From assembly GCA_051648645.1 (NCBI GenBank), contig JBOFFP010000001.1:384001-448000 (forward strand): DNA of 64,000 nucleotides, given 5' to 3'. Positions 18,107-18,324 of the stretch are shown one piece after another (the first letter of the stretch is position 1; every line of letters begins with the position of its first letter). A model generated the notes under the pieces. The model saw nothing but the letters and a program-made list of their open reading frames with translations, made no database searches and had not been told where the DNA came from. The position numbers and the translations under genes were made by a program. The DNA comes from Candidatus Rhabdochlamydia sp. Its GTDB lineage: Bacteria; Chlamydiota; Chlamydiia; Chlamydiales; Rhabdochlamydiaceae.

Positions 18107-18324
18107 AAGAGGGCTTGCTTGGTATTTGTATTCTGATTAAGAATTATTGCAACCAAGATTCTCGGGTTAACAGGTCATCTAATAGATGGCAAAGACCATA
18201 AGCTTAAGTGTCATGCACTGCTTATCATCTAACCAGTCTGAGAAAACAGGCATCTCTTGACCTTCCCTTTTTCATTATACTTATGAAGATAAGTAAATGG
18301 TTCTAAGAGGGAAGGTTTTTTTTT
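18107..18324 (+). ncRNA. Candidate structured non-coding RNA with intrinsic terminator
   Basis: Five nested helices traced by eye in 18107-18258, then a hairpin plus T9; lies between convergent genes. Confidence 0.55.
18260..18324 (+). terminator. Intrinsic terminator
   Basis: ACCTTCCCTTTT (18260-18271) pairs with AAGAGGGAAGGT (18305-18316), inner TACTTAT-GAAG-ATAAGTA, followed by a T run to 18324. Confidence 0.65.

Follow-up and report, generated by a model that had tools for sequence, protein, structure and literature searches.

An uncatalogued structured RNA, restricted to one clade of chlamydiae, lies head-on to rarA in Candidatus Rhabdochlamydia

Results

A structured RNA at the rarA locus

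The window (the whole 64,000-nt stretch of Candidatus Rhabdochlamydia sp. DNA analysed here) carries a methyltransferase gene and rarA in convergent orientation, and the space between them encodes a structured RNA on the forward strand (Table 1). A sequence-only reading had proposed such an RNA at positions 18107-18324, and its sequence and coordinates are as described there. This region folds at -71.2 kcal/mol (z -5.05), and none of 200 shuffled sequences folded as well. The z score was -3.45 for the opposite strand, -3.48 for the terminator-free piece 18107-18258 (1 of 200 shuffles as good) and -5.32 for the longer predicted RNA starting at 18072. Taken with the comparative evidence below, the structured RNA in this region is real. 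Its sequence occurs once in the host genome (G000), so that a repeat or mobile element was rejected, and no + frame of it is open. Two pattern matches in viral contigs were inspected, and neither was genuine.

Table 1. Coordinates of the RNA gene, its predicted parts and its neighbours in the window
Feature	Positions	Strand	Basis and remarks
Methyltransferase ORF	17259..17945	+	Upstream in 10/74 homologues; not a conserved neighbour
Extended -10 promoter element, TG-n-TAnnnT type	18057..18065	+	Predicted sigma66/sigma70 promoter, comparative
Predicted full RNA, ~253 nt	18072..18324	+	Predicted 5' end; RNA contigs span 18116-18318
P0, variable 5' hairpin	18075..18098	+	MFE; 5' hairpins of homologues unrelated in sequence
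P1 closing stem (18107-18117/18247-18258) and outer three-way junction with A-rich 3' linker	18107..18258	+	MFE
P2, hypervariable in length and sequence, sometimes multibranched	18118..18157	+	MFE, homologues
Conserved core; P3 (18159-18166/18237-18244) closes the inner three-way junction	18159..18244	+	Covariation
J3/4 linker with near-invariant A, C and A	18167..18173	+	73/74, 74/74 and 74/74 homologues
P4 hairpin; invariant U-A and C-G pairs below a near-invariant U-A that caps a 3-nt loop	18174..18190	+	Homologues
P5, interrupted stem with moderately conserved 5-nt loop; shortened in some lineages	18194..18229	+	Homologues
Intrinsic terminator: hairpin 18259-18317 and U tract; antisense to the last 22 nt of rarA	18259..18324	+	MFE
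rarA (mgsA), convergent neighbour with MgsA_C domain	18303..19574	-	ORF and domain match

The architecture drawn in the sequence-only reading was largely recovered in the minimum free energy fold, which contains P1 with 11 bp and one bulge, P2, P3, P5 and the two nested three-way junctions. Two helices proposed there, GTTA/TAAC prolonging P3 and GGTC/GACC enclosing P4, were neither in that fold nor conserved, and P4 itself is a 7-bp hairpin. The terminator is indeed a hairpin followed by a T run, though a 59-nt hairpin rather than merely the 12-bp stem first described. The plus-strand orientation, which had been deduced from G-U pairs, was borne out by 131 G-U against 47 A-C cells in the 27 paired columns of 74 homologues.

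Several further features of the window deserve mention. A Lys/Ala-rich ORF (22413-22565, +) without a Pfam match presumably resembles the chlamydial histone-like protein Hc1, and a 74-aa ORF (21226-21450, +), also lacking a Pfam match, has a C-terminal half rich in His, Pro and Cys. Moreover, an ORF for a HipA-like kinase (13539-14453, -; weak HipA_2 match just under the cut-off) lies directly downstream of a tRNA-Leu gene (14487-14569).

Promoter, ends and terminator

The extended -10 pattern was found upstream of 71 of 84 homologues, compared with 37 expected from shuffles, and positions beyond the searched pattern were also kept (T at +14 in 59/70 and A at +15 in 52/70). Another promoter-like site, at 18070-18097, is not the conserved one. 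The comparative promoter places the predicted 5' end at ~18072 and adds a further 5' hairpin, rather than the start at 18107 that had been suggested, whereas two environmental RNA contigs (see below) begin at 18116 and 18124. The predicted RNA length in homologues ranges from 180 to 438 nt with a median of 260 (n=62). P1 of at least 5 bp, differing in sequence, is predicted in 68 of 74 homologues.

A clear terminator lies 3' of P1 in 74 of 85 homologue rows, and at least four homologues have a U run immediately after P1 and no separate hairpin. The antisense overlap with rarA, noted previously, holds for the last 22 nt in the window but is not a general trait, the distance between the core and rarA being 1 to ~260 nt. 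Read in antisense, the RNA's U tract and one arm of its terminator supply the last codons of rarA (18303-18324), which gives similar Lys-rich C-terminal tails in several genomes (L056, L072, L075 and L108).

The sequence-only reading had also noted that the 5' AAGAGGG recurs in the 3' arm of the terminator and might allow an alternative pairing. Such a pairing is not conserved, and the terminator is predicted at P>0.9 in 71 of the 74 homologues counted (85 rows less one locus on the wrong strand, six mis-called hairpins and four in which no hairpin was found). None of the 74 full folds contained an alternative helix above 0.2. In truncated folds, some upstream pairing above 0.2 was predicted in 35 of 74, and in only one was P1 predicted to be exchanged for an alternative helix. 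Thus, within the thermodynamic model, mutually exclusive aptamer and terminator pairing as in a riboswitch was not found.

Covariation and invariant bases

Across 74 homologues, 24 of the 27 core pairs had changed on both sides with pairing restored. Standard pairs filled 91.5% of the paired cells; the share was 75.5% for shuffles and 32-47% for controls slid out of register. The same covariation picture emerged from a broader set of 60 sequences. These two alignments were fitted to the model. A plain, unfitted MAFFT alignment of 20 sequences also recovered P3 and P4 in addition to the P5 tip, and 11 of its 16 pairs were compensatory. P3, in which all eight pairs show compensatory change, was thus recovered on an alignment not fitted to structure as well. 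All of these pair counts come from related sequences, hence they are not probabilities.

The invariant bases cluster in J3/4, which has three, and at the P4 tip, which has one U-A and one C-G pair, and P0, P2, the 5' region and the terminator loop vary freely. What is conserved is a junction and the end of a stem, not a long loop.

Distribution across chlamydiae

In the DNA following rarA of 29 relatives, the element was present in all eight congeners and, by eye, in seven more distant genomes. With a covariance model built on the 94-nt core, matches were obtained in 99 of the 129 host-family (f1) genomes, nearly always in one copy; 30 of the 129 gave no match to this model, and among good-quality genomes of the family 63 of 77 had a match. 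Two further model rounds added the families f10 (3/3), f25 (3/3) and f41 (12/12), after which growth stopped. Samples of other chlamydial families gave no convincing match under filters that lose weak matches, so the RNA is to be regarded as not found there rather than absent. Among the weak matches to models R2 and R3 outside the four families, the 17 loci inspected, a count that excludes ten further weak R3 places, look like chance; the best of them (G289, E 1.3e-5) amounts to a simple perfect hairpin with a convergent ORF on either side. One genome carries two tandem copies of the RNA ~650 nt apart (L096, G252:C1:24596-25338).

A pattern search of genome contigs returned 75 matches, of which 50 loci were strong with model R2 and the other 25 were not. 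Rhabdochlamydiaceae and other Chlamydiota are among the titles of the named records that matched strongly. Some strong matches have titles of non-chlamydial organisms; their rarA identity is 59-62%, like that of chlamydial loci, and one such locus is 100% identical over 3075 nt to a locus with a chlamydial title. For these reasons we read them as mislabelled or contaminating contigs.

Neighbouring genes in the homologues

rarA is the head-on downstream neighbour in 44 of 74 homologues, a link seen across four families (in f41, eight of ten matches adjoin rarA), and in the remaining 30 copies a different gene lies downstream or none could be reached. Of the 74 copies, 67 have their downstream gene on the opposite strand, six have it on the same strand and one has none, and the upstream gene varies. 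The RNA therefore has no mRNA to regulate in cis, and the consistent same-strand downstream gene expected for a riboswitch was not observed.

An amino acid permease gene (window 19639-21051, -) lies upstream of rarA, and the RNA faces the permease gene in eight of 74 loci, where rarA is not adjacent, which suggests that permease, rarA and RNA is the ancestral order. In one f5 genome (L028), a same-strand smpB-like ORF was seen by eye after rarA in place of the RNA. Near-perfect inverted repeats of ~100-190 nt, which give spurious microRNA matches, lie between genes, next to the RNAs, at L027, L026 and L242, and are possibly small mobile or REP-like elements.

Traces in environmental RNA

Nineteen metatranscriptome runs contain 0.16-0.26 of the words of 17900-18500, and four of these runs, all chosen for containing the stretch, were compared with 17000-19600. 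From a soil run came a single 195-nt contig that spans 18124-18318 and differs at one position, and from a freshwater run a single, identical 151-nt contig that spans 18116-18266; in both, the flanking genes were not covered beyond short low-identity pieces. The contigs give neither ends nor strand, and both begin nearer to 18107 than to 18072. Of the other two runs, X1 covers the whole region and X4 has nothing on the RNA, and neither was counted as evidence. These two of four runs give a weak hint of a discrete, abundant RNA.

Known families and a separate 6S-like RNA

None of the 4227 Rfam families matches the RNA: the window region and eight homologous loci gave only sub-threshold, unrelated matches at E<=10. 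Likewise, the earlier remark that it bears no signature of SRP RNA, tmRNA or RNase P RNA is upheld, all three being found elsewhere in the host genome.

The sequence-only reading had called the RNA independent, possibly a divergent 6S RNA or a new motif. Its independence and newness are supported by family-wide conservation, covariation, an own promoter and terminator, changing context and the lack of an Rfam match. The 6S part is weakened. By definition 6S RNA is a rod of 160-200 nt with long helical arms on either side of a central bubble (PMC8414754), and in place of such a rod we found two nested three-way junctions supported by covariation. RF00013, the 6S model, scored nothing at E<=10, whether in the window, in the host genome or in the eight homologous loci; this test is weak, because the model also misses the better 6S candidate of the host genome. 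In 150 scored genomes of the order RF00013 gave no match over its cut-off.

This better candidate was reached through three weak full-length RF00013 matches, two of which were checked and proved convergent with lplA. A profile of the three finds G000:C12:73401-73578 (-; also L245:198-382) at E 4e-11, ~1 kb past lplA, where the predicted fold is a rod with a central bubble (z -5.15). It has homologues (L242-L244, L255, L258, L302-L310, L313-L319) in about ten chlamydial families, often adjoining gidA-lplA, and occurs in all eight congeners. A strict pattern gave 18 matches, of which the profile confirmed 16, and so placed this RNA in 16 of 251 genomes belonging to several families. Rfam does not score it in the host genome, and it stays below the Rfam cut-off everywhere tested. 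We infer that this RNA near gidA-lplA is a candidate chlamydial 6S RNA. Both RNAs occur together in the congeners and in G200, G236 and G098, and the presence of a separate rod-shaped, 6S-like RNA in the same genome removes the main reason for a 6S reading of the branched one, which is probably not the chlamydial 6S RNA. Two pattern searches found no credible copy of the 6S-like RNA in f33, the family in which LtuB was found. A loose 6S-type pattern gave mostly noise, and three similar f33 matches look like coding sequence, without a match to the 6S-like profile. A partial second copy of the 6S-like RNA is present in G003.

Discussion

The structured RNA at this locus is real, uncatalogued and restricted to one clade; its general kind is known, and any function is putative. 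Comparison across genomes shows an independent single-copy gene with a conserved, predicted extended -10 element, an intrinsic terminator and a core (P3-P4-P5) held together by compensatory pairs. The reading that we tentatively prefer, as possible rather than probable, is a free-standing RNA acting in trans, which would serve as decoy or scaffold for a protein bound at its invariant junction and P4 tip. The housekeeping sigma factor would transcribe a stable RNA of ~250 nt, J3/4 and the P4 tip would form a compact docking surface for one conserved protein, and the RNA would titrate or scaffold this protein in the manner of CsrB or 6S RNA with another partner. It might perhaps also accumulate in the dormant extracellular form, like the abundant ctrR0332 of Chlamydia. 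Such a role in trans does not account for the head-on link with rarA. Against it also stand the negative searches for the candidate partners CsrA and Ro60 (see below), the 30 host-family genomes that gave no match and the restriction of the expression traces to contigs.

The rarA link enters into two other explanations. The RNA could be a binder of RNA polymerase, either another 6S paralogue that has been strongly remodelled or an RNA of the Ms1 type, in which the inner junction mimics an open promoter. The 6S genes of lactic acid bacteria adjoin rarA (PMC8414754), the size is similar to 6S, RF00013 exceeds its cut-off in none of the scored genomes, and some bacteria have two 6S RNAs (6S-1 and 6S-2 of B. 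subtilis). On the other hand, the fold is branched, P5 is short and shorter still in f10 and f25, even a permissive search gave no 6S score, the separate 6S-like RNA accompanies it in the genomes named above, and rarA is upstream of 6S in lactic acid bacteria and here downstream and convergent. We consider polymerase binding unlikely. It is quite unlikely, too, that a ligand-sensing riboswitch-like element or a plain antisense unit controls rarA through read-through or the 3' overlap. Riboswitch-controlled antisense RNAs are known, the head-on arrangement recurs across four families, the compact invariant junction is aptamer-like, and the terminator directly follows P1, both containing similar pyrimidine tracts. 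However, 30 of the 74 copies lack rarA as downstream neighbour, the terminator does not overlap P1, the predicted folds hold almost no exchange of P1, and some homologues have their U run directly after P1.

Pairing with mRNA starts, by the P5 loop (complementary to the start codon) or by J3/4, would make the RNA a relative in kind of IhtA, which pairs independently of Hfq in Chlamydia (PMC2817459). The P5 loop reads anti-AUG and is kept in ~54-67 of 74 homologues per position; nevertheless it is lost in f10, f25 and several f1 genera, the flanking stem varies, and when four segments were compared with 1447 start regions of the host genome the best duplex was no better than those of 12 shuffles each, so that we regard base pairing as rather improbable. 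A distant relationship to the ltuB-associated RNA of Chlamydia (ctrR0332/CPn0332) appears highly improbable. That RNA is ~240 nt long and very abundant, with its own terminator and a multibranched consensus (PMC2817459, PMC3333780), and the two RNAs were found in different families. Against this, model R2 with filters off gave no full match on ten ltuB loci, model R3 had no convincing match in 25 f33 genomes, a search of the host genome did not find LtuB, the two RNAs have different conserved motifs and mirror-image branch orders, and ctrR0332 is processed from a longer transcript.

A more far-reaching reading can be imagined. The RNA would belong to a new housekeeping-like class, retained by almost all genomes of a single large chlamydial clade and working beside a separate uncatalogued 6S-like RNA; its invariant junction would be the binding site for RNA polymerase, for a different core machine or for a metabolite, and it would help the switch between dormant and replicating forms. 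We hold this reading to be doubtful. Intracellular bacteria with small genomes rarely keep dispensable RNA genes. Since, moreover, the invariant junction bases are retained in four families, the RNA probably does something basic.

No description of this RNA was listed in the literature searched, to which neither the survey of 6S RNAs by Wehner et al. (2014) nor the PMC11109978 supplement belonged; either may bear on novelty, above all on that of the 6S-like RNA. Chlamydia pecorum is the only chlamydial genome in the motif-discovery study PMC8632094, and the main text of another (PMC11109978) does not mention chlamydiae. The alignment gives the exact bases to mutate, and the model allows annotation of ~100 genomes. 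A by-product is the candidate chlamydial 6S RNA, for which none of the 150 genomes scored passed the Rfam cut-off. With the two RNAs, it becomes directly testable whether chlamydiae have RNAs that bind RNA polymerase.

Finally, the RNA may be compared with known systems. It shares with 6S/SsrS RNA (RF00013) a free-standing gene, a length of 200-250 nt and a closing stem, and differs in its branching, in the missing model score and in the better candidate elsewhere in its genome. rarA, the neighbour of 6S in lactic acid bacteria (PMC8414754), adjoins it in 44 of 74 homologues, but downstream and convergent. ctrR0332/CPn0332 is likewise chlamydial, ~240 nt, branched, provided with its own terminator and of unknown function (PMC2817459, PMC3333780); it differs in its conserved motifs, its mirrored branch order, its processing from the ltuB transcript and the families that carry it, and our RNA neither lies downstream of ltuB nor has the same motifs. 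The ltuB-downstream RNA of f33 (L212-L229, L232 and L240) has a conserved multibranched fold of its own, and its mirrored branch order is probably a coincidence. IhtA, which represses hctA, is also a trans-acting chlamydial sRNA, and an hctA-like ORF lies 4 kb away in the window, whereas IhtA is 109 nt long (PMC2817459) and the only hctA duplex found uses the variable 5' part of our RNA.

Other classes are recognised by features that could be looked for directly. CsrB/Rsm decoys are defined by repeated GGA loops together with a CsrA gene. Conserved GGA loops are missing from the RNA, and CsrA was not found in the three RNA-bearing genomes tested (G000, G160 and G033). A bacterial Y RNA is expected in genomes with a Ro60 (TROVE) gene, found in none of five genomes including these three. 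A permuted tRNA-like domain has an invariant CCA after a 7-bp acceptor stem and a T-loop in the adjacent hairpin. It was rejected here, the first C being present in only 52 of 74 homologues and P2 having no conserved loop. Lineage-restricted orphan RNAs are represented by the 'phylum-1' type motifs of Rfam, the raiA motif and Ms1. With these orphan structured RNAs the present one, set apart by the lack of any Rfam match, shares a free-standing gene, covarying helices, its own predicted promoter and terminator, and a presumed function through protein binding or tertiary structure.
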